From positions 1-49,590 of the forward strand of contig JAFAHQ010000367.1 of assembly GCA_019237135.1 (NCBI GenBank): 49,590 bases of DNA, given 5' to 3'. This document shows, piece after piece, positions 1 through 10,724 of the stretch. Under the pieces are notes generated by a model. That model was given only the letters and a program-made list of their open reading frames with translations. It was not told where the DNA came from and searched no databases. This stretch comes from Alphaproteobacteria bacterium. Its GTDB lineage: Bacteria > Pseudomonadota > Alphaproteobacteria > ATCC43930 > CGMCC-115725. Position 1 is the stretch's first letter, and the number at the start of each line of letters is the position of its first letter. The position numbers and the translations under genes are program-made.

Positions 1-1884
1 CCAGGGTCCGAGATCCTCGACCGTAGCGCTCGCGGTGGAGATCAGGTTGGCTGAGTTCGGGATATAGCTGCCGGGATGGCCGGGCTCGGTATCGGCGGTG
101 CCGGGGTCGCCATCGGCGTAGCGCGCGTGCGTAGCCGCGAAATCGCCGTCGAGACGGAGCCAGGGAAGCGGCTTGTAGGAAGCACTCAGTTCGATGCCCT
201 TGCGTTGGCTCGGCCTGCCCGGCGTGGTCTCGGCCTCGTCGCCGTCAAACGTCGCCTCGCTGGCGAGATTGAGCACGAAGAGCGCGCCCTCGAGCTTGAG
301 GTTCGGCAATGGCTCCGATCGCACTCCAACTTCGTACCCGGTCGCTTTGGTCAGTAGCGGCGTCTTGACCTGCGGCACGATGGTGGGGTTGCCCTGCTGG
401 AAGTTGATCTCGGTCTGCAATGCATTGACGGTGGTCAGTGCGCCGCGCAAATCGTTGCTGTGAAAGCCCTGACCGACACTCAGGTAGTATTCGGTCTGGT
501 TCCACGGACCGAAGATCAGATTGCCCTTTGGGCTGGTGATGGCCTGGACGATCGTGCCGGAATTGGCCTGGAGCGTGCTTTCGTCTGAGCCGTAATAGAG
601 ATCCTCGCGCAAACCGGTGACCGTGCGAAACTTGTCCAGCCATTGGATTCGATTTTCGATAAAGAGGCCGCCGCTCGATTCGATCACATGGTCGTCACGC
701 ACCGTGAACCGCACCACCCGGCCGGTGGTCTCTGCCAAATCGATGTGAATGTCGTCTGTACGGGTCTGAAAGCCGACAGTGTTCTGCGCGTCGTAACCAA
801 AGACGTTGCCGGGGATCATATAGCTGACATTTCCGCCATAGATCTTGCGCCGGTCTTGCTGCACAAACTGGTCGCCGATGGGAGGGGGGAAAGTCACGAA
901 ACCGTCGAAATTGTTAAACAGTTGCAGTTGGTAACCGATCAGATAGGCATTTGCTTTGAGCTGACCGGTGTCGGTCGTTGCAGTATATTTGGTGGAAAAG
1001 CTGTAGCGCTCCGAGCTGCCGCCGTCGGTCGGGTCGAGCGGGCAGTAGAGGCAGATCAGTCCCTCAGTGACGGCACGCTGTGGGATTTGATTTGTCGCAT
1101 GGAAGGCATCGTTCATGTACATGCCGGTGAACGAGAACCCGTTATCCGCATTCCCCTGGCTATAATTGGCGATGAGGTTTCCTTTGTTGTAATTGTCCGG
1201 GATCTCCCACGGCCCGTCGGCGTGAACGTATTCGGCCGCAACCAGAAGGTTGCCGTCTGCCACCGGACGCGAGGCGGCGCCGAGCCCGCGGGCGTAACCG
1301 AACATTCCGGCGCTAAGCAAGGCGAGGTCGTGCGGCAGGGTGTCGACATAATTGATCTGGACGGCTCCAGCCGTGTCGAAGTCGCCGAGACTGGGGAAAT
1401 AGGGCCCCTTGCTGTATTGCAAGGTGCTGATCAGCTCGGGGATCATGAAATTGAGATCGGCATAGCCTTGGCCATGCGCGTGGGTACGCATGTTGACCGG
1501 CATGTCGTCGAGCGAGATGTCGATATCGGTGCCGTGATCGAGGTTGAAGCCGCGCAGGAAATACTGGTTGGCCTTGCCCTCGCCGCTGTGCTGCGTGACG
1601 ATCAGCCCCGGCACGACCTCGAGCGTTTCGCCCACCCGATAGACGGGCTGCTGCTGGATCTGCTCACCGGTGACAACCCCTTGCGAGGCGGTGTCCGGCG
1701 CGAAGAACGCTCTATCCGCCTGCGCAGACACGCTCATTTCGGGCAATGTGATTGTGGCGCCGCCGGGGGAGTTATCCCCGGCGGCAGTGCCGGGATCTTC
1801 GGCTAGTGCCGCGCTTGCAAATCCGAGCGAGACGATGAGCCCGGCGGTAAAGCCGCGCCAGGATTTGGTTCTGGTGCGCTGCAT
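1..1884 (-). CDS. TonB-dependent outer-membrane receptor (N-terminus and plug in window; C-terminus runs off the left edge)
   Basis: Manual translation from the ATG at 1884-1882 gives MQRTRTKSWRGFTAGLIVSLGFASAALA (signal peptide), then TLPEMSVSA (TonB-box-like), then GEGKANQYFLRGFNLDHGTDI and PVNMRTHAHGQGYADLNFMIPE (plug signature). No ORF terminating inside the window is listed for this frame, so I infer it is open to base 1 (spot-checked at both ends only). The + ORF 643..1806 is its antisense shadow. Confidence 0.85.
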   Translation of the reverse strand, partial: MQRTRTKSWRGFTAGLIVSLGFASAALAEDPGTAAGDNSPGGATITLPEMSVSAQADRAFFAPDTASQGVVTGEQIQQQPVYRVGETLEVVPGLIVTQHSGEGKANQYFLRGFNLDHGTDIDISLDDMPVNMRTHAHGQGYADLNFMIPELISTLQYSKGPYFPSLGDFDTAGAVQINYVDTLPHDLALLSAGMFGYARGLGAASRPVADGNLLVAAEYVHADGPWEIPDNYNKGNLIANYSQGNADNGFSFTGMYMNDAFHATNQIPQRAVTEGLICLYCPLDPTDGGSSERYSFSTKYTATTDTGQLKANAYLIGYQLQLFNNFDGFVTFPPPIGDQFVQQDRRKIYGGNVSYMIPGNVFGYDAQNTVGFQTRTDDIHIDLAETTGRVVRFTVRDDHVIESSGGLFIENRIQWLDKFRTVTGLREDLYYGSDESTLQANSGTIVQAITSPKGNLIFGPWNQTEYYLSVGQGFHSNDLRGALTTVNALQTEINFQQGNPTIVPQVKTPLLTKATGYEVGVRSEPLPNLKLEGALFVLNLASEATFDGDEAETTPGRPSQRKGIELSASYKPLPWLRLDGDFAATHARYADGDPGTADTEPGHPGSYIPNSANLISTASATVEDLGPW

Positions 1885-2054: not shown

Positions 2055-3176
2055 TCATAGGAATATGCTGACATTGAGGCTGCGCTCGATCAGCCATACC
2101 GAAGCGACCGTCACGATGCTCAATGAGCCGGCCCCGAGCACGAGGCGCGGATAGAGCCACGAGCGGCGCGACAGATAAGCGACGGGCAAGAACGTCGCGA
2201 CGATCGCCAGTTGCCCAGCCTCGACACCCAGATTGAAGCTGACCAGCGATACCGCCAGCGCCGGCTTCGGCAGCGCCAGATCCGTTAAGACATTGGCAAA
2301 GCCCAATCCGTGCACCAAACCGAAGACGAAAGCCACGATCCATAGTCGCTTCTCGATCAGCGGGTAAAGGTTGTTCAAGGCGGCGACGACCACCGAAGCG
2401 GCGATTGTCGACTCGATGAGCCGCGACGGCAGGGTGATGAACCCGAGCACTGCAAGGCTCAGGGTAATCGAATGCGCGATCGTGAACGCGGTGACGATGC
2501 TGATGACGTCGAGCAAAGCCTTGCGGAAGGTCGTTACGGCTTGCCATCTCCCGCCACGGTGCTCGAGCACTGCGGGGAGCAGTAGGGCGCAGAGGAACAG
2601 GATGTGATCGAAGCCGGTCCAGATATGCGAGACCCCGGTCTCGAAAAAGTCGCGAAATTGGCTCCCGAGCCCAACCGACTGCCCTTCCGACTGCCAAGTC
2701 GCGCGGTCGGGGCTGAAAACCGCCGTGTGGGTGCGGCCCTGCTCCTCCAACCGCAGCAAACCGCGGTGCTGCGGGTCGAGATCGAAGAACAGGGTGTATT
2801 TGATGGTCAAAACCCGCGGAGTGGCCGGGCAGTCGACGGAAAACCGCATGACCTCGTAGGCGCCGTCGCTGTGGTTGTCGGCCAAATGTTCGGTGACCCT
2901 CATCGGGCAGCCGACGTCATCAGCGGCGATCGCCAGGCGAGCCAGTGCGTAGGCGGCGATTTCGGTGTGCTTCGCCTTGACCTCTCCCCAGGTGATCTCG
3001 CCGTTACCATCGGTATCGAGCCCAATGGCGTAATCGAGATCGCGCAGCGCGATGTCCCACTGTCCGGTCAGGTGATGGCCCTCCAGCGAAAGCATCAGGT
3101 AGCTGTCGCTCGGCTTGTGGGCATAAGCCGGCGCAACCGATAACGACAGCAGCAAGATCAGGACGAAGCGCCGCAT
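2055..3176 (-). CDS. HupE/UreJ-family (type 2) membrane protein with ~190-aa N-terminal periplasmic domain
   Basis: ORF 2055..3302. Preferred start is the internal ATG at 3176 (MRRFVLILLLSLSVAPAYA signal peptide). The core GVSHIWTGFDHILFLCALLLP plus multiple TM helices are typical of the HupE_UreJ_2 family. Confidence 0.85.
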   Translation of the reverse strand: MRRFVLILLLSLSVAPAYAHKPSDSYLMLSLEGHHLTGQWDIALRDLDYAIGLDTDGNGEITWGEVKAKHTEIAAYALARLAIAADDVGCPMRVTEHLADNHSDGAYEVMRFSVDCPATPRVLTIKYTLFFDLDPQHRGLLRLEEQGRTHTAVFSPDRATWQSEGQSVGLGSQFRDFFETGVSHIWTGFDHILFLCALLLPAVLEHRGGRWQAVTTFRKALLDVISIVTAFTIAHSITLSLAVLGFITLPSRLIESTIAASVVVAALNNLYPLIEKRLWIVAFVFGLVHGLGFANVLTDLALPKPALAVSLVSFNLGVEAGQLAIVATFLPVAYLSRRSWLYPRLVLGAGSLSIVTVASVWLIERSLNVSIFL

Positions 3177-3332
3177 CGATCGGCCTTGCAGCGCAGCCTT
3201 TGTGGATCGGTTCCTGCTGCGACGGCAAATCGCAGCAGGTATTCCGCTCTCTGATGACATTGGTTCTGCATCAGCGCCTAAGAGGGCAGTCCCGCGCGCC
3301 ACCCTGCGCGGGCTGCACTTCCGGCCTCCGGG

Positions 3333-4925
3333 TCACGGTGCCGGCGGCGGCGGCACTGGCGCTACGCAGGGATTACTGCCCTGACCGGCGCTGCACTTGC
3401 CGTCGTACGGTGTGGGGAGGAACGGAAAATTCCGGGCGATGCCGTTCGCCGTAATGTCGACGTCGACCACGCCCGGGGCGCCGGCGAGGAAATTGACGCC
3501 ATCGCCGATGTGGTTGGCGATATAGTTGTTGCCACCGACCACGCGGACCGTAATGTCGGTGACATCATCATTGGGCCGGCGTCCGTTCGGATAGCCCGCC
3601 TTGTCCGTGGTCAGCGCGGCGCCCAGCCGGCTCTGCATTTCGGGTGCGGTAGGCGGCACGCTCAGGTCGAGCCGCAGCAGTTCGGCGCATGGCTGGCCGC
3701 AATTCGAGCCGCTCAGGGCTTGGCCTGGGTATTTGAGCAGAAGGCCGATCAGGTCGGTGCGGTTGTTTGCTGGTGAACCATTGATCGGAACGATGGGCAC
3801 ATGAAACACCAGGTTCAGCTCCGTGGCGACCACCGGATCCTGATAAAACGCCTGGAAATTGGCCTCGTCTTCCGGCTTCGAGGCGTTCCATTCGTCCTTG
3901 AACGGCGTGGTGATGATCAACTCGTTCACCAGCGGGTTTGCCATCCGCGACACCTGGACGAATGGCCCGTCCTCGTCCGCCGGCTCACCGGGTTGGCCCA
4001 GCACTTTCACCTTCTGCCGGGAGGTGTTGGCGTATACCCCGATTACCGGATTGTTGGTGGTCGCGGCCGGTTTACCGTCGCTGGTAACGCGCGTGATCGG
4101 GACCTCGATGGCGATGGTGCTGATGTTGAATCCGCCGAAACGGTTCACGCCGAACGGGTTGACATTGTCACTGTCTTCTCCCGGCCCAGTAAGCGCAGGC
4201 AGGTAGCGGCGCAGGTTCAAGGTGTCGAACACCGCGCCCAGATCGATATAGAAGGTCTCGGCGCGCTGGCCGGCGAACACGCGGATGCCAGTCGCGGCAT
4301 CACTGTAGATGCCTTGTGCGGCCAAGGCAGGATAGTCGGGCATCGTGGCGGGTCCGACGTTCGACGGAACCGCAACCAACGTGCGGCCGCTGAACAATTC
4401 GGTCCGCTGCCCGTGGCGGACCTCGGTCACGGTATAGGTCTGACGCCGGGTCAAGCCTTCCGATCCGGCACCATCGAGCGCGGTGATGCCTTGCAGCGGA
4501 AGTGTAGGCGTAATGTGCGGGTTGCCGAGATACGGCAGCGGTGAAGTCAAATCGCCAGCGGCGACGACCGGCCGGTTCTCGGTCTTGAAGCGGAACTCAT
4601 AGACGACGTCGTCGGCCCTGCCATCCCGGTCGTTGTCGATGTGGACGGCGTACAGCACGTCGTCGCCGAAGTTGAAGTAATTGGGCCCGTCGCTCGGGTC
4701 CTGCCCCGGGTTCACGTTCAATATGAACGTAACCCGCCGATCGGCTGGGGCCCGCGCCAGGTTTGCCTCGTCATAGCTGACAAAAGCGTAAACGTCGGTG
4801 TTGTCGGCACTTGGGTCCAAAGCGATCAGAGGCGCTTCGCGGTGGCTTGCCGCCTCTGCGGGAATATCCCATGCGAGGGCGAATGTCGCCAGCAATGGGA
4901 TGAATAGTTTCAACAAGTGTTTCAT
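3333..4925 (-). CDS. DUF4331 domain-containing secreted protein
   Basis: Signal peptide MKHLLKLFIPLLATFALAWDIPAEA is followed by the family hallmark SHREAPLIALDPSADNTDVYAF. Confidence 0.85.
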   Translation of the reverse strand: MKHLLKLFIPLLATFALAWDIPAEAASHREAPLIALDPSADNTDVYAFVSYDEANLARAPADRRVTFILNVNPGQDPSDGPNYFNFGDDVLYAVHIDNDRDGRADDVVYEFRFKTENRPVVAAGDLTSPLPYLGNPHITPTLPLQGITALDGAGSEGLTRRQTYTVTEVRHGQRTELFSGRTLVAVPSNVGPATMPDYPALAAQGIYSDAATGIRVFAGQRAETFYIDLGAVFDTLNLRRYLPALTGPGEDSDNVNPFGVNRFGGFNISTIAIEVPITRVTSDGKPAATTNNPVIGVYANTSRQKVKVLGQPGEPADEDGPFVQVSRMANPLVNELIITTPFKDEWNASKPEDEANFQAFYQDPVVATELNLVFHVPIVPINGSPANNRTDLIGLLLKYPGQALSGSNCGQPCAELLRLDLSVPPTAPEMQSRLGAALTTDKAGYPNGRRPNDDVTDITVRVVGGNNYIANHIGDGVNFLAGAPGVVDVDITANGIARNFPFLPTPYDGKCSAGQGSNPCVAPVPPPPAP

Positions 4926-4968: not shown

Positions 4969-6255
4969 TCAGCCTCGTCGCGCGATGATCCGTTGGAGCT
5001 CGATATCCTCCAACCGGGAATTGCTTAGCCATTCCCGCACGGCGTCGACGGCAGCAGCGTCGCGGGCGGCCAGGGCAGCTTCGAGCAGGATGCGGACATC
5101 CGCCGGCTCCTTCTGCACCTGCCAATTTTCCTGTGCGAGCGTCAGCGCCGCCTGCGGTGCGTTCAGCAGATGCAAGGTGAACCGGCCCTCTTCCCGGAGG
5201 TGCACCCGATCCCCACGAAGGCGGCTGGCCGCGAAGCGGTCGCGCAGCTGCTCCATTTGTGCGGGCAGTTCTTTCGAATGCTGAGCCTGCAACGCCAGCG
5301 CGTAACGGAGCAGCAGGGGGTCTGCGCGGGTCTTGTCCCGAAGCAGGTCGAGGACCTCCGGCGACCGATCGCTGTCCAATAAGAAATCTGCGTAGGCGCC
5401 GAGAACGTAGTAGTCCGCGGCATCGAGAGCGAGCGCTGCGCGAAAATGCGCTTCCGCCTCCTGCGCCATGCCGGCGCGCGATGCCATTTCGGCCAGGCTG
5501 ATCAGCAGCCAGCTTTGAACGCTCGGCTTAGCGCGAGGGTACCTAGCGAGCGCTAGACTAAGTTGCTGATAGCTCTCGCGCAGCTGACCGGTCACTCCGT
5601 TCACATTCGCCAGGCAGGCGGCCCACACCAGTTCTTCGGTCAGCTCTTGCAGCGCGCGGCATTCTTCCCTCGCCTCGTCATAGGCGCCCTGTACCTGCAG
5701 CACCGTCGCGCGGATTAGCCGAGCCTGGAGATTGCGTGGATTGGTGTTCAGCACCGTCGCTAAATCCGCCAAAGCGGCATCGAACTGGTGCACGCGCTGA
5801 CGCAAAGTGGCGCGCAAGACCAGCACTTCCTGAGGTGCTTGCTCAAAGTCCCACCACGGGGCCAGCGCAGCTTGAGCATAGCCAGCGTAACGTGGATCAC
5901 CCGTGACGCGGCCGACCTCGAGGTAGCCCTGTGCGACAAGAAGCGCCAGCGGCAAGTTATCCGGGCTGCGGGTCAGTTGATTATTCAGTGCGCGCAGCCT
6001 GCTCAGGACAGGGTCGTTCGGCGCGAACGGCAAGCGCTCGAGGACCTGGCTGTCGGATTCAGGGACGAACGGCGCAGCAACCGCCCGTCCTGACGTGACG
6101 GCGATGACGATGACGCAGATCAGCGAGGCGATGCCACGCCATCTCTGGGAAAGCATATCGAGGAGATCAAGTGCTGATTCTGACGAGGATCCGAACGGTC
6201 CGCGCGATCGCTGGGTTAGCGAAGCCCGAGTGAAGGCGGCATTGGAACGCTTCAT
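4969..6255 (-). CDS. Tetratricopeptide-repeat protein, N-terminally anchored or secreted
   Basis: ORF 4969..6303. Start is uncertain (ATG at 6255 gives MKRSNAAF; a later Met precedes the hydrophobic IASLICVIVIAVTSG). Helical repeat-rich sequence with TPR-like A/L/Y periodicity. Confidence 0.7.
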   Translation of the reverse strand: MKRSNAAFTRASLTQRSRGPFGSSSESALDLLDMLSQRWRGIASLICVIVIAVTSGRAVAAPFVPESDSQVLERLPFAPNDPVLSRLRALNNQLTRSPDNLPLALLVAQGYLEVGRVTGDPRYAGYAQAALAPWWDFEQAPQEVLVLRATLRQRVHQFDAALADLATVLNTNPRNLQARLIRATVLQVQGAYDEAREECRALQELTEELVWAACLANVNGVTGQLRESYQQLSLALARYPRAKPSVQSWLLISLAEMASRAGMAQEAEAHFRAALALDAADYYVLGAYADFLLDSDRSPEVLDLLRDKTRADPLLLRYALALQAQHSKELPAQMEQLRDRFAASRLRGDRVHLREEGRFTLHLLNAPQAALTLAQENWQVQKEPADVRILLEAALAARDAAAVDAVREWLSNSRLEDIELQRIIARRG

Positions 6256-6401
6256 CGATAGTCTCCCCCGTTTGCAGCGGCCCGGGCCGCCGCTCCTCCC
6301 CATTACGGCTGAGATGTCCCGGCGGATGCCGCCGATTAAAATCTTTTCGGTGGCTGCCGTTCACAAAGCCGTGATGTCGAGAGCCGAGCCAGCATGTCCG
6401 G

Positions 6402-6977
6402 TCACGAAGTCGGTAAAGCGCGAAGGACGTCGATTACGCTGGCGCAGCCAGCGCGTTCCAATGCAACAGAATAAGGCCGCCGGAAAGCGGAGCGGATTAT
6501 CTCATGGTGACTGCCGGCGTGAGCAATCGTGTAATCGCCAGGCCGATAATCCTGGCCATCGACGTTCACGACGCCCTCGAGCACGAAACACTCCTCCGAC
6601 TCCGGATGATCGTGCTCGGGATAGGCACTGCCGGGCTCCATCCGCATCAGGCCCGTGCGCTCGCCGGTCACCGGATCGACGTGGAGCATCTTTAACTTGG
6701 TCCCCGGTGCGACTTCGAGCCACACGCCTTCCGATTGCCGGCGAGAGATGGATGGCGCCCCTCCGCCGATGCGTTGCTGGACGGCGGCCCAGACGGATGC
6801 GGGGGGCGTCACCGGAGCCACCCGATCTGCAAGCGGCGTCAGGCGGCGGAACCAGGCATCGACGGAGCGGCGAAAGTCGGGCTCGTCACGCATGCGGCGC
6901 GTGACCGCTGCCCGTTCGTCGGCTTCGAGCGCTCCGAGCACAAATTCGCCGGCCAATTCCTCGGACGCGTCAGCCAC
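6402..6977 (-). CDS. Soluble anti-sigma factor: RskA-like sigma-binding N-terminus fused to a ChrR-type cupin domain
   Basis: GTG start overlaps the sigma gene stop by 8 nt. The N-terminus ELAGEFVLGALEADERAAV...WFRRLTPL is paralogous to the RskA-like protein at 8591..9295. The C-terminus carries cupin motifs PGSAYPEHDHPESEECFVLEG and GDYTIAHAGSHHE. No TM segment and no HxxxCxxC zinc motif. Confidence 0.7.
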   Translation of the reverse strand: MADASEELAGEFVLGALEADERAAVTRRMRDEPDFRRSVDAWFRRLTPLADRVAPVTPPASVWAAVQQRIGGGAPSISRRQSEGVWLEVAPGTKLKMLHVDPVTGERTGLMRMEPGSAYPEHDHPESEECFVLEGVVNVDGQDYRPGDYTIAHAGSHHEIIRSAFRRPYSVALERAGCASVIDVLRALPTS

Positions 6978-7515
6978 TCACGTCACCCGGATCCAGGCAT
7001 TCCTTCAGCTTAGCGAGCCCTCTGCGGATTGTCGATTTCATCGTACCGAGCGGGACACCAAAGCTTTTCGCCAGTTCGGCGTGCGACAGCCCGAAGTAAA
7101 AGGCCATCAGAATCGCCTTGGACTGCATGGCATCGAGACGCTGCAAGCACCGTTCGATATCGACCCCGACAATGTCGTGAGGGGGAACAAGCCCCTCGAT
7201 CTCCTCGAGGTCGGGAGCAGTTGGACGCCGGCTGGCGTTGGACCTCAACACATCAATGCAGATATGACGGACAATTCCCGACATCCAATGGATCGGCTGC
7301 CCCTTTTCGGGATTATATTGGCCGGACACGGCCCAAATCCGCACATAGGCTTCCTGCAGCGCTTCGCCTGCAGCATCGGCATCCCGCAACATCCGGCTGG
7401 CGATCGCCAAGAGCTTGCCGTTGGTCAGACGGTAGAGCTCTGCAAAGGCGATCTGATCTCCCAACGCGGTAGCGCGAAGCAGCTCCGACGGGAGGTCGGC
7501 AAGCTCTATCGACAT
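6970..7515 (-). CDS. ECF (sigma-70 family) RNA polymerase sigma factor
   Basis: ORF 6970..7587. Preferred ATG is at 7515 (MSIELADL). Region 2 (EALQEAYVRIW) and region 4 (FGVPLGTMKSTIRRGLAKLKECL) signatures are present. Confidence 0.85.
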   Translation of the reverse strand: MSIELADLPSELLRATALGDQIAFAELYRLTNGKLLAIASRMLRDADAAGEALQEAYVRIWAVSGQYNPEKGQPIHWMSGIVRHICIDVLRSNASRRPTAPDLEEIEGLVPPHDIVGVDIERCLQRLDAMQSKAILMAFYFGLSHAELAKSFGVPLGTMKSTIRRGLAKLKECLDPGDVSG

Positions 7516-7665
7516 CGCTCCATCCAGTGGTCCGCGCGCCGGCGCCGAATGGTCGATAAATGAGCCTGGATGAGCGGCCCTGGTCAAGGTCCCGCTCGCC
7601 GCTCGTCCGACAGCAAATCTGATCCTTGCCTATATCGTGTTCTTCTGAAAGGTACTCCACGAATG

Positions 7666-7880
7666 CCCGTCGACGCCCGCCAACCGCCGTCTCGCCGCGG
7701 TCCTCGCGAACGCTCGGTCGGAGCCGGGTCAACGCGACGCGGTGAGCGTTGCAATCTCCCCCCAGGAGCAGGTCCGTGGTGCGCTGGCGGCAAGCGCTCG
7801 GCGCTCTCGGTGGTTCAGGCGTCGCTGACGAGCGTCACCAGATACCCGAGATCGCGGGCGTCACGCACCCGCTCTCGACG
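7666..7880. repeat. Copy A of a duplicated segment (intergenic DNA plus isochorismatase 3' end), roughly 85-90% identical by eye to 10017..10263 with a ~32 bp internal deletion
   Basis: Hand alignment: cccgtcgacgcccgccaaccgccgtctcgcc...ggtgcgctggcggcaa (7666-7793) against 10017-10144, then gcgctcggcgct...cgctctcgacg against 10177-10263. Confidence 0.8.
7729..7880 (-). pseudogene. Decayed 3' fragment of an isochorismatase-family gene (paralogous to 10080..10724)
   Basis: Homology to the last ~180 nt of the intact gene starts at the equivalent stop codon (tca at 7729-7731). The ~32-nt deletion breaks the frame and the 5' two-thirds of the gene are absent. Confidence 0.65.
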
Positions 7881-7899
7881 GGCGAAACCCGAGGTTTGC

Positions 7900-8451
7900 C
7901 TAGGGCATCAGAACCTTGTCGATGACCATGATGACCCCGTTACTCTGGTATACATCGGGGACCGTGACCCGGGCGGTGTTGCCCTTTTGATCGGTGATCG
8001 TGAGGGTGTTGCCGCTTTCCGCCACGATCAGCAGCTCGCTTTCCGCGGTCTTCAGCGAAACTCTGCCGCCGGGCGTCGTCTTGATCGCGTGATCGAGCGA
8101 CATTGCATCATAGCGGCCGGGGACCACGTGATAGGTCAGGATCTGGGTGAGCTGGGCCTTGTTCTCGGGCTTCAGCAGCGTGTCGACGGTGCCCGCCGGC
8201 AATGCCGCAAAGGCTTCGTTGGTCGGCGCGAAAACCGTGAACGGGCCGGGACCCTCCAGCGTCGGCACGAGACCCGCAGCTTTGACCGCCGCCACCAGGG
8301 TGGTGTGGTCCTTCGAGTTGACGGCGTTCTGGATGATGTTCTTCGTGTCATACATCGGCGCGCCCCCGACCATCGGGTCCATCGCCGCCATGGCGCCGGC
8401 GCCGAGTGTCAGGGCGACCACGGCCGTCGCGCTCACCAGCCTGATATTCAT
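7900..8451 (-). CDS. Fasciclin (FAS1) domain secreted protein
   Basis: ORF 7900..8508. Preferred ATG is at 8451 (MNIRLVSATAVVALTLGAGAMA signal). The FAS1 signatures TLVAAVKAAGL, GPFTVFAPTNEAF, ILTYHVV and SNGVIMVIDKVL are present. Confidence 0.9.
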   Translation of the reverse strand: MNIRLVSATAVVALTLGAGAMAAMDPMVGGAPMYDTKNIIQNAVNSKDHTTLVAAVKAAGLVPTLEGPGPFTVFAPTNEAFAALPAGTVDTLLKPENKAQLTQILTYHVVPGRYDAMSLDHAIKTTPGGRVSLKTAESELLIVAESGNTLTITDQKGNTARVTVPDVYQSNGVIMVIDKVLMP

Positions 8452-8590
8452 GCCACGTTCCTCGCTGATATCTGCTCTGCGACTTCGGCAACGGGATGCT
8501 GCCGACACGTCGTCTCTCGCAATACGCAGCCGAGGCGGATCTGGATGCGGCCGTAGGTAAATTCTGGCGGGGCGCCGCCCTTGCGCCCGA

Positions 8591-9295
8591 TTACGGCAGT
8601 CTCAGCAGGACCTTGCCGCGAGACAGAACCGGGCCGGTCGGAAGCCCCGTCGGAGATCCGCCTTGCGGCTCGAGGCTGACCGCCAGCAGATCGCCCGGCG
8701 GCGGCAGCTGCGCGGCGCGGATTATTGCGGCGTTACCTGCTTCCGGCCGCAACAAACCGAGCGGGCGGGGCGCCCCACCGGCGATGCTCCACAGCTCGAA
8801 GGAGTGACGAGTGTCCTCGGCTTGCGGCCGGATCGCGGAGACTGAGACTTCGCCCGTTTGCGGTCCGGCGATCGCAATCCAATTCGGGTCGCCGCTCTGA
8901 TCGGCGAGCACCGCGACCACGGCCGGGATGGGTGGCCCCATGCGGGCCGGAAACGCCGCGATGTAGATGATCAGGGCCGCCGCGGCCGTGCAGGCGGCGA
9001 TCGACAGACCACGCCAGAATGCGAGCGAGCCAAACCAGCGATGCTCGAAGGCAGGTGGAGCAGCGTCGGCGGCGATCCGCGCCTCGACCGCACGCCAGAC
9101 ACGAGCCGGCGGCTCCTCGGCCGGGGTTGCCGTGTCGAGCGGCGTTAGCCGGTCGGCCCAAGCGCCGACCAACCGCGCCAGCGTGGGGTCATCGGCCATC
9201 AGCCGCTCGAAGCGCCGCCGCGACCGGCTCGGCATCGTGCCGAGGACATATTCGGCGGCGAGTTGGTCGCGTAATTCTGGGTCGTCGTACCTCAT
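8591..9295 (-). CDS. Anti-sigma-K factor RskA-like membrane protein
   Basis: ORF 8591..9370. Preferred ATG is at 9295 (MRYDDPELRDQLAAEYVLG), forming an ATGA overlap with the upstream sigma stop. One TM helix (LSIAACTAAAALIIYIAAF) and an extracytoplasmic RskA-type C-terminus (FELWSI...LAVSLEPQGGSP). Confidence 0.8.
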   Translation of the reverse strand: MRYDDPELRDQLAAEYVLGTMPSRSRRRFERLMADDPTLARLVGAWADRLTPLDTATPAEEPPARVWRAVEARIAADAAPPAFEHRWFGSLAFWRGLSIAACTAAAALIIYIAAFPARMGPPIPAVVAVLADQSGDPNWIAIAGPQTGEVSVSAIRPQAEDTRHSFELWSIAGGAPRPLGLLRPEAGNAAIIRAAQLPPPGDLLAVSLEPQGGSPTGLPTGPVLSRGKVLLRLP

Positions 9296-9915
9296 GGGTC
9301 CAGACACCGCTTCAGACGTTCGAGTCCGCGGCGGACCCAGCTCTTGACCGTTCCGAGCGGCACGGCGCAATCGGCTGAGATCTCCTCGCGCGTGAAACCG
9401 TAGAGATATGCGAGCAAGATAGCCCTGCGCGGCTGCTCGTCGAGCTCTGCAAGACAGCGCTGCAACGCGGCCATCTCGGCACCGCGATCGGTACTACCGC
9501 TGGCCGCGAAACTCAGCAGCATCTCATCGGAGGCGCTGTGGCTATTCGGCCGACTGGCACGTCGACGAACGTGATCGATCGCGCAATGGCGCACGATCGT
9601 GGTGAGCCACCCCGTGGCCGAGCCTCTTGCCGCATCATAATCGCCAGCCCGCTGCCATATGGCGACGAAGCTCTCCTGCAAAACCTCTTCCGCCTCCTCT
9701 CTCTGGCCGACGATTCGTATCGCGACGCCAAATAGTTTCGCTGCGGTTCGCGCGTAGAGCGCCGCGAAAGCAGCCTTGTCTCCCCGCGATGTTCCGCGGA
9801 TGAGTTGCTGAAGCTGCAAAGGCGAATCCGAGCCTGACCCTTCTTCGAGACGTTTCACGATGTTCACGGAGCGGGTTGAAGGTGTCCCTATGCGCCGCAC
9901 GGTCGAGCAATGCAA
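9292..9915 (-). CDS. ECF sigma factor (SigK-like, paralog of 6970..7515)
   Basis: Region 2 (EEVLQESFVAIWQRAGDYD) and region 4 (AVPLGTVKSWVRRGLERLKRCLDP) signatures. Exact start is uncertain. Confidence 0.85.
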   Translation of the reverse strand: MHCSTVRRIGTPSTRSVNIVKRLEEGSGSDSPLQLQQLIRGTSRGDKAAFAALYARTAAKLFGVAIRIVGQREEAEEVLQESFVAIWQRAGDYDAARGSATGWLTTIVRHCAIDHVRRRASRPNSHSASDEMLLSFAASGSTDRGAEMAALQRCLAELDEQPRRAILLAYLYGFTREEISADCAVPLGTVKSWVRRGLERLKRCLDP

Positions 9916-10016
9916 CCGGCGAAGGTCAGTCGCTTATTCCCAGCGTAGCCAACCCTGCTTGGTTCGCCGGCACACTTAATGCCGCCACGTCGTCGTGGCC
10001 GGGCTTGTCCATCGCG

Positions 10017-10263
10017 CCCGTCGATGCCCGTCAACCGCCGTCTCGCCCCAATCCTCGCGAACGATCGATCGGAGCCAGGTCAACGCGACGCGGAGAGCGT
10101 GGCAATCTCCGCGAGGAGCAGGTCTGTGGTGCGCTGGCGGCAATAGCCGCGGATGCCGATCAGCGACTGCTCGTGGCGCTCGGCGCTGGTGGTGGTGCAG
10201 GCGTCGGTGACGAGGGTGACAAGGTAGCCGAGGTCACAGGCGTCGCGCACTGCGCTCTCGACG
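10017..10263. repeat. Copy B (parental) of the duplicated segment; covers the intergenic DNA and the 3' end of the intact isochorismatase gene
   Basis: See the alignment under 7666..7880. Confidence 0.8.
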
Positions 10264-10724
10264 CACTGGTCGGTCATCATTCCGGCGACGATCAGCGAGC
10301 GCACCCCGAGATTGCGCAAGACGAAATCGATATTGGTCGATATGAAGACGCTGCTCGACGTCTTACGAAAGACCATTTCGTCCTCTGACGGTGCGATTTC
10401 AGCGAGGATCTGCGCGTCCCACGAGCCGCGCGGCACGTCGATCCCCGAGATCTTGTAGTCGAGGCTGCGGTCGCGGCCGTCCAAGGTCATGTTCTCGACT
10501 GCCGCGTAGACGACCTCGATACGCGCGCGGCGGCAGGCCGACTGCAGAAGCTGCAGATTAGGCAGCACGGCTTCGCGTAGGCTGCCGAACAGATAACGGC
10601 GCTGCTGCGCGTCGAGCTTGTGAGAGCCGGCACCGTCGGGATGCGCGCAGTAATTCTGGACATCGACGATCAGCAATGCCGCATGGATTGGGTCAACCGG
10701 TACTTCACGGCTCAGTGTGGTCAT
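10080..10724 (-). CDS. Isochorismatase-family cysteine hydrolase
   Basis: The motifs ALLIVDVQNYC, FRKTSSSVF and LIVAGMMTDQCVESAVRDA carry the catalytic D/K/C triad context. 4-nt overlap with the upstream gene. Confidence 0.85.
   Translation of the reverse strand: MTTLSREVPVDPIHAALLIVDVQNYCAHPDGAGSHKLDAQQRRYLFGSLREAVLPNLQLLQSACRRARIEVVYAAVENMTLDGRDRSLDYKISGIDVPRGSWDAQILAEIAPSEDEMVFRKTSSSVFISTNIDFVLRNLGVRSLIVAGMMTDQCVESAVRDACDLGYLVTLVTDACTTTSAERHEQSLIGIRGYCRQRTTDLLLAEIATLSASR

Follow-up and report, generated by a model that had tools for sequence, protein, structure and literature searches.

Genomic organization of the locus

The analyzed DNA (the window) is a 49,590-nt stretch of a contig from an alphaproteobacterial metagenome bin that is 77% complete and split into 423 contigs. 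It carries two ECF sigma/anti-sigma pairs (Table 1). Switch A consists of sigma-2, an RskA-type anti-sigma and a fasciclin gene, and switch B consists of sigma-1 and a soluble cupin anti-sigma. The five ORFs of the two switches, fasciclin gene included, are all on the minus strand, and the two pairs lie where a sequence-only reading had placed them. Sigma-2 and the RskA-type gene are joined by an ATGA overlap between the sigma-2 stop and the ATG at 9295; an alternative TTG start at 9370 is probably too long. The probable start of sigma-1 is the ATG at 7515, and the fasciclin gene likely begins at the ATG at 8451. The TPR protein starts with MKRS at 6255, where both the start codon and the ribosome-binding site are conserved in the alignment. 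The N-terminus of the fasciclin protein resembles a signal peptide.

Table 1. Features of the two switches and the adjoining genes, in window coordinates.
Feature	Position	Strand	Evidence
Sigma-2, SigK-like ECF sigma factor, 207 aa	9292-9915	-	Pfam Sigma70_r2 and r4_2
RskA-type membrane anti-sigma, 234 aa from ATG at 9295	8591-9295	-	Pfam RskA_C, 66.6 bits
Predicted ECF promoter GCATCC-N16-CGTATT, upstream of fasciclin gene	8523-8547	-	Pattern match
Secreted fasciclin (FAS1) protein gene	7900-8508	-	Pfam Fasciclin, 117.9 bits
Degenerate repeat copy A': 3' end of isochorismatase-family gene plus 64 nt	7665-7868	.	Direct repeat of 10016-10250
Repeat copy A: 3' end of intact isochorismatase-family gene plus 64 nt downstream	10016-10250	.	
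Intact isochorismatase-family gene	10080-10724		Pfam Isochorismatase, 123.6 bits
Sigma-1, SigK-like ECF sigma factor, 205 aa	6970-7587	-	Pfam
Soluble cupin anti-sigma, 191 aa	6402-6977	-	Pfam Cupin_7, 72.9 bits
Predicted ECF promoter GCATCC-N16-CGTAAT, upstream of TPR-DUF4331 operon	6304-6328	-	Pattern match
TPR protein gene	4969-6255	-	Weak TPR Pfam matches
Secreted DUF4331 protein, 530 aa	3333-4925	-	Pfam DUF4331, 360.5 bits
HupE/UreJ-2 permease	2055-3302	-	Pfam HupE_UreJ_2, 165.8 bits at residues 219-380
TonB-dependent receptor, cut by window edge	1-1884	-	Pfam Plug and TonB_dep_Rec_b-barrel

Sigma factors

Sigma-1 and sigma-2 share 40% identity over 171 aa (E 3e-41), at the lower end of the 40-45% estimated by eye in the sequence-only reading. 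That reading had both proteins ending in CLDP, which holds for sigma-2; sigma-1 runs five residues longer. The best solved-structure match of each is Mycobacterium tuberculosis SigK (4NQW_A; E 7.4e-25 for sigma-2 and 6e-20 for sigma-1), with both SigK cysteines aligned in each case, and neither reaches the NCBIfam SigK cut-off. Sequence comparison thus supports the two as paralogues within one SigK (ECF18/19-like) clade. In the genus tree, sigma-2 falls within a clade of RskA-linked sigma factors (SH-aLRT 96) and sigma-1 within a clade of cupin-linked ones (SH-aLRT 100); monophyly of the cupin-linked sigma factors is not rejected on the sigma tree (p-AU 0.48), and the sensor domain may have been exchanged once or several times. 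Judged from these phylogenies, the RskA-linked and cupin-linked sigma factors represent old, separate lineages that coexist in the genus.

Anti-sigma factors

The N-terminal domains of the two anti-sigma factors are significantly similar (43% identity over 69 aa, E 4e-13), and the sensor parts that follow are unrelated, both as previously proposed. The RskA-type protein has a zinc-free sigma-binding domain, a single transmembrane helix (residues 97-115 by hydropathy, KD 2.24) and an extracytoplasmic RskA_C domain, and it scores 105.4 bits against NCBIfam NF052375 (cut-off 100). The cupin protein has no transmembrane segment (hydropathy maximum 1.06). Its first 75 residues or so form an RskA-like, zinc-free, four-helix sigma-binding domain, matched by NF052375 at residues 8-76 (E 4.8e-14), and ChrR family models match just the cupin part. 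When the 80-aa N-terminal domain was compared with 1.84 billion representatives, 2217 matches were found; among the best 148, 85 carry RskA_C and six carry a cupin. An RskA-like sigma-binding domain common to both anti-sigma factors is therefore supported at the sequence level.

ChrR, which controls SigE (ECF11) in Rhodobacter sphaeroides (PDB 2Q1Z/2Z2S; PMC6852236), is the obvious comparison for the cupin protein. Both are soluble and two-domain, with a four-helix sigma-binding part and a cupin-like part. The cupin-type family profile aligns to full-length ChrR (2Z2S/2Q1Z, 4e-8), and the AlphaFold model of the intact orthologue in the closest relative, L001 (pLDDT 78), shows four helices and a cupin, with full-length ChrR 2Q1Z as best fold match (1.4e-10). 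The conserved cupin ligands His122, His124, Glu128 and His158 correspond to ChrR H141, H143, E147 and H177, of which E147 and H177 are required for the singlet-oxygen response (PMC6852236). Homologues are labelled "anti-sigma factor ChrR" by JGI. The protein could accordingly be read as a typical ChrR (ECF11-type) protein that responds to singlet oxygen or organic peroxide, has no connection with metal status and has lost its zinc motif. We consider this quite unlikely. The HxxxCxxC motif is absent, as had been noticed from the sequence, and all four N-terminal zinc ligands of ChrR (H6, H31, C35 and C38; PMC6852236) are missing, their aligned positions being occupied by D3, R28, E32 and F35. 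With ChrR family models the protein stays well short of the cut-offs (24.7 against 124.5 and 31.2 against 300), the partner sigma is SigK-like with the SigK cysteine pair, and the conserved neighbors are DUF4331, TPR, HupE and TonB receptor genes, a putative metal-uptake module, rather than oxidative-stress genes or a photo-oxidative stress regulon. A literature search found no experiments on proteins of the cupin-type family.

In this assembly the cupin gene carries a frameshift, and switch B may therefore be impaired. Compared with L001, L002 and L003, the window has one T more at about 6484-6486, which shifts the ORF after about residue 164, so that its last 27 residues are the product of a +1 frameshift relative to every homologue. 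All of the 40-plus homologues end in SGGLxLLHWNA, an ending that can be read in the +1 frame of the window, and the shifted tail is modelled at pLDDT 37-43. Loss of the last cupin strands could leave the anti-sigma unstable or locked on, like the truncated ChrR85, with the newly adjacent RskA switch having taken over control; ChrR without its cupin still inhibits sigma but does not respond to the signal (PMC6852236). We regard breakage of this kind as somewhat doubtful: the extra T could stem from faulty assembly or binning of a fragmented metagenome, and all four metal ligands precede the point where the frame shifts. A broken switch B would also be compatible with the explanation preferred below.

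Origin of the adjacent switches

The sequence-only reading implied that one pair had arisen by local duplication and domain swapping. A recent duplication followed by sensor replacement in one copy would fit two pairs lying 2.3 kb apart in the same orientation, with about 205 nt of DNA upstream of both sigma genes duplicated at 81-91% identity. These direct repeats flank the cassette block (repeat families D1, D2 and D4 between copies A and A'), and in a three-way alignment with L001, copy A' carries a 32-bp deletion and a 1-nt insertion. What is duplicated, however, comes from the 3' end of the upstream isochorismatase-family gene and not from the sigma genes, which encode proteins only 40% identical and placed in separate, well-supported clades. 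The sigma-binding domain of the cupin protein is closer to RskA proteins elsewhere (54-57% identity) than to that of its neighbor (43%). L001 is collinear with the window except at 7596-10070, and the cassette region of about 2.5 kb is absent there. Local duplication is hardly credible on this evidence.

The fasciclin-rskA-sigma block at 7893-9922 has 80.8% DNA identity to L129, and by such comparisons the sigma-RskA-fasciclin unit is a conserved cassette of about 2 kb that also occurs elsewhere in the genus. The two switches are adjacent because this switch-A cassette (about 2-2.5 kb), which the L001 site lacks, lies upstream of switch B. They are also co-located in L002 and in the gammaproteobacterial locus L032; in L003, the counterpart of switch A beside switch B is only an RskA_C remnant.

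Switch A resembles the mpt83-sigK-rskA cassette of M. tuberculosis (ECF18/ECF19, PDB 4NQW; PMC7509140). The two have in common a SigK-like sigma with two cysteines, a zinc-free domain, one transmembrane helix and RskA_C, together with an adjacent FAS1 gene, here behind a conserved predicted ECF-type promoter, as counterpart of mycobacterial MPT83/MPT70. Sigma-1 is SigK-like as well and keeps the cysteines. The window differs in its proteobacterial host, in sigma factors that score below the NCBIfam SigK cut-off, and in the DUF4331 gene that usually follows the cassette in this genus.

DUF4331 module

The envelope module behind switch B (TPR, DUF4331, HupE/UreJ-2 and TonB receptor) is widespread and uncharacterised. 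With its sigma-cupin pair, its spread is given as five phyla: the pair occurs with DUF4331, TPR and HupE genes, with or without the TonB receptor, in Alpha- and Gammaproteobacteria, Nitrospirota and Verrucomicrobiota, and at the Planctomycetota locus L040 the DUF4331 match is weak (23% identity). The TPR gene is a syntenic partner of DUF4331 at many loci. Our literature search found no paper that mentions the DUF4331 family and no experiment on it. The module probably captures trace metal.

About 190-200 aa at the N-terminus of the permease form an extra-membrane domain. For Anglerase-HupE/UreJ-2 proteins, which have the same architecture, the proposed role of the extra-membrane domain is capture of transition-metal ions and their delivery to the permease (Franco Cairo et al., Nat Commun 2025, PMC12537917). 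That study mentions neither sigma factors nor DUF4331, and no solved structure matches the window's N-terminal domain in sequence. This comparison concerns the regulon and not the two switches.

Among the sampled genomes of the genus, about nine have DUF4331 genes following an RskA-type pair, and in about five they follow a cupin-type pair. The order sigma-RskA(-fasciclin)-DUF4331 was found at nine loci of the genus and three of other Pseudomonadota, and the order sigma-cupin-DUF4331 at L121, L123 and L125.

Predicted promoters

Both predicted target promoters in the window share GCATCC-N16-CGTA. The fasciclin motif recurs between rskA and the fasciclin gene in L091, L096, L097, L102, L103 and L108, and within the divergent sigma/fasciclin intergenic region in L112. 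The TPR-DUF4331 promoter sits inside a strongly conserved leader of about 110 nt (6266-6375), which is also conserved in L001, L002 (two copies) and L003, and the motif is also found ahead of DUF4331, TPR or sigma genes in L004, L032, L034, L038, L049, L074 and L086. Across the genome, CATCC-N16-CGTA shows no enrichment (17 matches, about chance level); the weight of the motif rests on its position and conservation. A pattern search of the window found no such motif ahead of sigma-1 or sigma-2, which leaves autoregulation without support at this locus.

As a rule, paralogous ECF pairs are insulated from one another, and in most cases anti-sigma factors show specificity for their own ECF group (PMC7826278). 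The two switches might likewise be insulated and adjacent by accident, the cassette having landed beside an unrelated operon, with each sigma using its own promoter and each anti-sigma binding its own sigma. Discrimination between the promoters would then depend on the spacer and on the bases next to the -10 element (CGTAAT versus CGTATT). Pairs just 40-43% identical, separate sigma clades that coexist in the genus, and a short motif at chance frequency all agree with insulation. We nevertheless think it unlikely: the -35 and -10 cores are identical at both targets and at the targets of both lineages in other genomes, sigma factors of both lineages occur directly upstream of DUF4331 genes, and the switches are co-located in at least two independent arrangements (window/L002/L003 and L032). 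The sequence-only reading raised cross-binding of each anti-sigma to either sigma and did not take promoter overlap into account. Given the separate sigma clades, the DUF4331 genes behind both types of pair and the common motif, the promoters are a likelier point of regulatory overlap than anti-sigma binding.

Proposed regulatory model

We favor the explanation, at a probability of about 0.7, that the locus holds two separate SigK-clade switches from old paralogous lineages, with alternative sensors and OR-type control through shared promoters. In this reading, switch A is the proteobacterial form of the mpt83-sigK-rskA cassette, its RskA_C domain reading a signal outside the cytoplasm. Switch B, with an RskA-like domain joined to a ChrR-like cupin, heads the TPR, DUF4331, HupE/UreJ-2 permease and TonB-dependent receptor genes; the signal for its soluble anti-sigma, in which the His-His-Glu-His metal site is complete, would be a cytoplasmic one. 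Each sigma-binding domain may clamp its sigma in the way seen in the 4NQW and 2Q1Z structures, between regions 2 and 4. RskA would free its sigma through regulated proteolysis, and the cupin protein upon changed metal occupancy or oxidation.

In this lineage, insertion of the cassette of about 2 kb has placed switch A immediately upstream of switch B. Both sigma factors can probably fire both promoters, which would give the fasciclin and DUF4331 genes an OR-type input from two compartments. DUF4331 modules occur behind either kind of switch, and the two sensors are therefore natural alternatives for a single type of regulon.

The Two Sigma/Anti-Sigma Pairs

ECF sigma/anti-sigma pairs, from which bacterial envelope signalling is mainly built, are also favoured as orthogonal parts for synthetic circuits. 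Two such pairs lie in the window: switch A consists of sigma-2, an RskA-type anti-sigma, and a fasciclin gene, and switch B consists of sigma-1 and a cupin anti-sigma. A sequence-only reading had described them as paralogous pairs with a shared sigma-binding module and swapped sensors, and alignment bears this out. Sequence identity is 40% between the sigmas (171 residues aligned, E 3e-41) and 43% between the anti-sigma N-termini (69 residues aligned, E 4e-13); the N-terminal similarity is significant. Outside the N-termini the anti-sigma proteins do not align, and Pfam assigns their unrelated C-termini to Cupin_7 ("ChrR cupin-like") and RskA_C. Hydropathy gives one transmembrane helix in the RskA protein and none in the cupin protein, in agreement with the membrane and cytoplasmic sensors first proposed.

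Table. Coordinates of the switch genes, flanking repeats, and predicted promoters in the window.
Feature	Coordinates	Strand	Remark
sigma-2	9915-9292	minus	first in transcription order
RskA-type anti-sigma, 234 aa	9295-8591	minus	ATG overlaps sigma-2 stop as ATGA
fasciclin gene	8508/8451-7900	minus	Pfam Fasciclin match
sigma-1	7587/7515-6970	minus	
cupin anti-sigma, 191 aa	6977-6402	minus	8-nt overlap with sigma-1
direct repeat beside sigma-1	7665-7868		
direct repeat, second copy	10016-10250		
predicted promoter ahead of TPR gene	6304-6328		GCATCC-N16-CGTAAT
predicted promoter ahead of fasciclin gene	8523-8547		GCATCC-N16-CGTATT

The top solved-structure match of both sigmas is Mycobacterium tuberculosis SigK (4NQW_A; 6e-20 for sigma-1 and 7.4e-25 for sigma-2), followed by Rhodobacter sphaeroides RpoE, the partner of ChrR. 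The SigK cysteines (C133 and C183) are retained, in ...ERCLQRL / LKECLD and ...QRCLAEL / LKRCLD of the two sigmas, and this cysteine pair is regarded as a mark of ECF18/ECF19 (PMC7826278, PMC7509140). SigK-like NCBIfam models score highest for both sigmas, yet under their equivalog cut-offs (117.3 and 145 bits for the SigK subfamily model NF007228, cut-off 226 bits). Both are named SigK-clade factors here, and not SigK orthologues.

The pair in switch A is of an already known kind. Its anti-sigma scores 66.6 bits with Pfam RskA_C (cut-off 29.4) and 105.4 bits over its full length with NF052375 (cut-off 100), and it has a single transmembrane segment at residues 97-115. The mpt83-sigK-rskA cassette is known from actinobacteria and Yersinia (PMC7509140), and the window likewise has a SigK-like sigma, rskA directly after it, and a fasciclin (mpt83-like) gene. 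At least nine genomes of the genus keep the sigma-rskA-fasciclin cassette. In seven other genus genomes the block of these three genes (7893-9922) recurs at 72-81% DNA identity, and two further loci match it in part (fasciclin gene only in L124; fasciclin and rskA, 80%, in L133).

The Cupin Anti-Sigma Factor

The cupin anti-sigma shares with ChrR a two-domain architecture and the His-His-Glu-His cupin ligands. It scores 72.9 bits with Cupin_7 (cut-off 27), and its family profile is collinear with full-length ChrR (4e-8). Residues H122, H124, E128, and H158 align to ChrR H141/H143/E147/H177 and are invariant in 39 homologues; the zinc and cupin ligands of ChrR are listed in PMC6852236. For the intact orthologue in the closest relative, L001, AlphaFold predicts four helices joined by a linker to a cupin barrel (pLDDT 78), and the best PDB fold match of this model is ChrR in complex with SigE. 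The protein differs from ChrR in three respects: it has no zinc site, its family scores are below cut-off, and its partner sigma is SigK-like. The absence of the HxxxCxxC motif, noted from the sequence at the outset, holds in a profile alignment to 2Z2S_B, where D3, R28, E32, and F35 stand at ChrR H6, H31, C35, and C38, and none of its close homologues has the motif. The ChrR models TIGR02451 and NF051881 match the cupin part only, at 24.7 and 31.2 bits against cut-offs of 124.5 and 300.

The N-terminal domain is of another kind. Positions 1-68 of NF052375, a full-length RskA-type model, match residues 8-76 of the cupin protein (E 4.8e-14). When the first 80 residues were searched with HMMER against 1.84 billion representative proteins, 2217 hits were obtained; among the best 148, 85 carry RskA_C and six a cupin, the remainder being fragments. 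Several RskA proteins elsewhere are 54-57% identical to this domain, compared to 43% for the neighbouring RskA. By manual count, helix 1 (EELAGEFVLGAL) is identical to the AS19-1 consensus (HTLAGAYALDAL) at six of 12 positions, with one additional Tyr/Phe match, and helix 2 (EADERAAVTRRM) is identical to its consensus (LDDERAAFERHL) at six of 12, both consensus sequences as quoted in PMC7406223. M. tuberculosis RskA itself (4NQW_B) matches the domain weakly (E 0.12), and in Pfam neither anti-sigma N-terminus matched a domain model at a threshold as loose as E 10. Because of the collinear profile, the kept cupin ligands, and the fold match, we classify the cupin anti-sigma as ChrR-like in architecture; its sigma-binding domain is of the RskA kind, and by its missing zinc site, family scores, and partner sigma it falls outside ChrR proper.

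Homologues are already loosely labelled "ChrR" in databases. Our literature search found no published work combining RskA, cupin, and ECF, and nothing useful on Cupin_7 (PF12973) beyond a ChrR review. A zinc-free hybrid anti-sigma of this RskA-like/ChrR-like type is not described in the papers that could be searched.

Related genes show further variation. In two sphingomonad loci the first pair is followed, just downstream, by another gene that encodes a zinc-free sigma-binding domain and cupin and comes without a sigma gene (L026, 6566-7075; L031, 7160-7687), and the L031 copy has GCATCC-N17-CGTA ahead of it and a fasciclin gene after it. A cultivable sphingomonad, Sphingomonas caeni LB-2, likewise carries a pair of the cupin type. 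In sigma-linked cupin proteins of Gamma- and Betaproteobacteria (L013, L014, L021, L029, L032, L038, L049, and L074), only about 50-60 residues precede the cupin. The sigma-binding-domain model does not detect this stretch, so the sigma-binding segment there is either greatly shortened or highly diverged.

The cupin gene of the window carries a frameshift. DNA alignment with three orthologues places one extra T at about 6484-6486, and the frame shifts after residue ~164. Cupin homologues are about 180 aa long and all end in ...IIRSxSGGLxLLHWNA..., and the normal C-terminus (SGGLILLHWNALAAPA) is legible in the +1 frame of the window. The four metal ligands are kept in the frameshifted protein and the final barrel strands are replaced; its AlphaFold model still draws a strand there at low confidence. 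The extra T is possibly an assembly error, because the genome is a 77%-complete bin in 423 contigs.

Two Probable Front Ends for DUF4331 Modules

Downstream, the cupin gene is followed by a TPR gene and by genes that encode a secreted DUF4331 protein, a HupE/UreJ-2 permease, and a TonB-dependent receptor. ECF sigma-cupin pairs recur with DUF4331/TPR/HupE genes, with or without the TonB receptor, in Alpha- and Gammaproteobacteria, Nitrospirota, and Verrucomicrobiota; in a Planctomycetota locus (L040) the pair is beside a weak DUF4331 match only. According to a recent proposal, HupE/UreJ-2 permeases that carry added metal-binding domains capture transition metals and bring them into the cell (PMC12537917). 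In the HupE/UreJ-2 protein of the window (2055-3302), the permease core is preceded by an N-terminal domain some 190-200 residues long, which has no sequence match among solved structures, including the published anglerase. No mention of DUF4331 was found in our literature search.

DUF4331 (PF14224) is present in 21 of 61 genus genomes. Inspection of 20 genus DUF4331 neighbourhoods found a sigma-RskA pair directly upstream of DUF4331 in nine, usually with the fasciclin gene, and a sigma-cupin pair in three, in addition to the window and G020, a genome of the same genus. Sigma-RskA pairs are also next to DUF4331-TPR-HupE genes in three unrelated Pseudomonadota. From this shared gene context, switches A and B appear to be alternative front ends for one kind of regulon, the DUF4331 modules, an arrangement of which we found no description in searchable papers. 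As a separate observation, only four of 201 genomes sampled across the phylum have DUF4331, compared to the 21 of 61 in the genus. The window and G020 have DUF4331 Pfam scores of about 355-360 bits and most other genomes about 470-485, hinting at two score classes, and intermediate and fragmentary scores also occur.

In the genus sigma tree, an RskA-linked clade (16 rows, SH-aLRT 96) separates from a cupin-linked clade (six rows, SH-aLRT 100). The sigmas could have been recent duplicates of each other, an origin that these separate supported clades contradict. Two old sigma lineages coexist in the genus, both tied to DUF4331 genes. The exchange of sensors is harder to count. A tree of the anti-sigma N-terminal domains with C-terminal type mapped on, a check proposed with the sequence-only reading, forces at least two sensor changes and is poorly resolved (80 columns). 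The sigma tree needs four to five changes, of which well-supported branches force only one, and an AU test on it did not reject monophyly.

Predicted Promoters

Conservation is unusually high upstream of the TPR gene, where one copy in L002 (Stellaceae) is 95% identical to the window versus ~81% for the flanking genes. The promoter core found there and ahead of the fasciclin gene recurs in the rskA-fasciclin interval of six genus loci and, in L112, in a divergent sigma/fasciclin intergenic region. It also precedes DUF4331, TPR, or cupin-linked sigma genes in L001, L003, L004, L032, L034, L038, L049, L074, and L086. The motif of the window resembles the mycobacterial SigK promoter consensus, CCATCC-N16-CCGAAT. 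Genome-wide, the bare motif has 17 matches, approximately the chance frequency, so the promoter argument is built on placement and conservation, and such a search does not define a regulon.

Neither sigma gene in the window has the motif upstream; a near-miss, TCATCC-N16-CATTCG at ~7546-7572, is not conserved in L001. A scan of 6150-10150 for sigma-70 promoters and terminators returned nothing informative. Cross-talk was first suggested in the form of each anti-sigma binding either sigma. Overlap at promoters seems likelier than such cross-binding, because the targets of both sigma lineages share the -35 and -10 cores. Two other intergenic-looking GCATCC-N16-CGTA sites occur in the genome, one at C4:19413(-), which ends CGTATTGCG like the fasciclin promoter, and one at C42:4289(+), ahead of a 401-aa membrane protein; these may be extra regulon members.

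Origin of the Tandem Arrangement

The closest relative, L001, shares ~88% DNA identity with the window and is collinear with it to either side of 7596-10070, a segment that it lacks; in L001 an isochorismatase-family gene abuts sigma-1. In the window, the switch A cassette lies between two direct repeats, roughly 205 nt long and 81-91% identical. Both are made up of the isochorismatase-family gene's 3' end and a further 64 nt; the copy beside sigma-1 is degenerate, a dead fragment from which 32 bp are deleted. This layout would fit either single-crossover integration or a template switch. No further copies of the repeat were found in the genome or related loci.

The association of the two switches recurs and its arrangement is fluid, since three other loci are each arranged differently. 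In L002 a related RskA cassette separates the cupin gene from the TPR gene and is bracketed by two copies of the TPR leader/promoter (837-942 and 4568-4673); this cassette carries extra cytochrome b561-like and molybdopterin oxidoreductase (MsrPQ/YedYZ-like) genes. L003 has an RskA_C remnant (4319-4702) about 700 nt upstream of its sigma-1 orthologue, with neither a sigma-binding domain nor a sigma gene, and the sequence before the remnant looks, by eye, like the C-terminal end of a gene for an RND efflux pump. In gammaproteobacterial L032 both pairs are adjacent in yet another order.

Proposed Mechanism and Significance

The sequence data directly show the domain make-up, the missing zinc site, the conserved metal site of the cupin, the synteny, the inserted cassette, and the motif common to both targets. 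By analogy with the SigK-RskA (4NQW) and ChrR-SigE (2Q1Z) complexes and the ChrR literature, each anti-sigma N-terminal domain would sequester its sigma, and the C-terminal domain would be dispensable for inhibition and required for sigma release. Genomic context suggests that the cupin may read cytoplasmic metal status for the uptake module and that RskA_C may read an envelope cue. We give about one chance in five to a fuller reading, in which a single regulon is under a two-compartment OR gate made up of the two switches. The cupin would report intracellular trace-metal occupancy (nickel, copper, or cobalt class) and RskA the envelope cue, and both sigmas would fire the same GCATCC-N16-CGTA promoters to express an undescribed DUF4331/TPR/HupE-UreJ-2/TonB-receptor metal capture system and the fasciclin protein, with sensor types interchangeable across bacteria. 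If the OR-gate reading is true, the zinc-free ChrR-like protein would be the first metal-sensing cupin anti-sigma.

Here nature has combined one sigma-binding module with a cytoplasmic and an extracytoplasmic sensor that are unrelated to each other and serve the same kind of target operon, and the tandem switches in the window are a convenient natural test bed. They offer a system for asking how specificity between close paralogues is maintained or relaxed, what a ChrR-type cupin senses when untied from singlet oxygen, and how a very widespread, unstudied DUF4331 envelope module is turned on.
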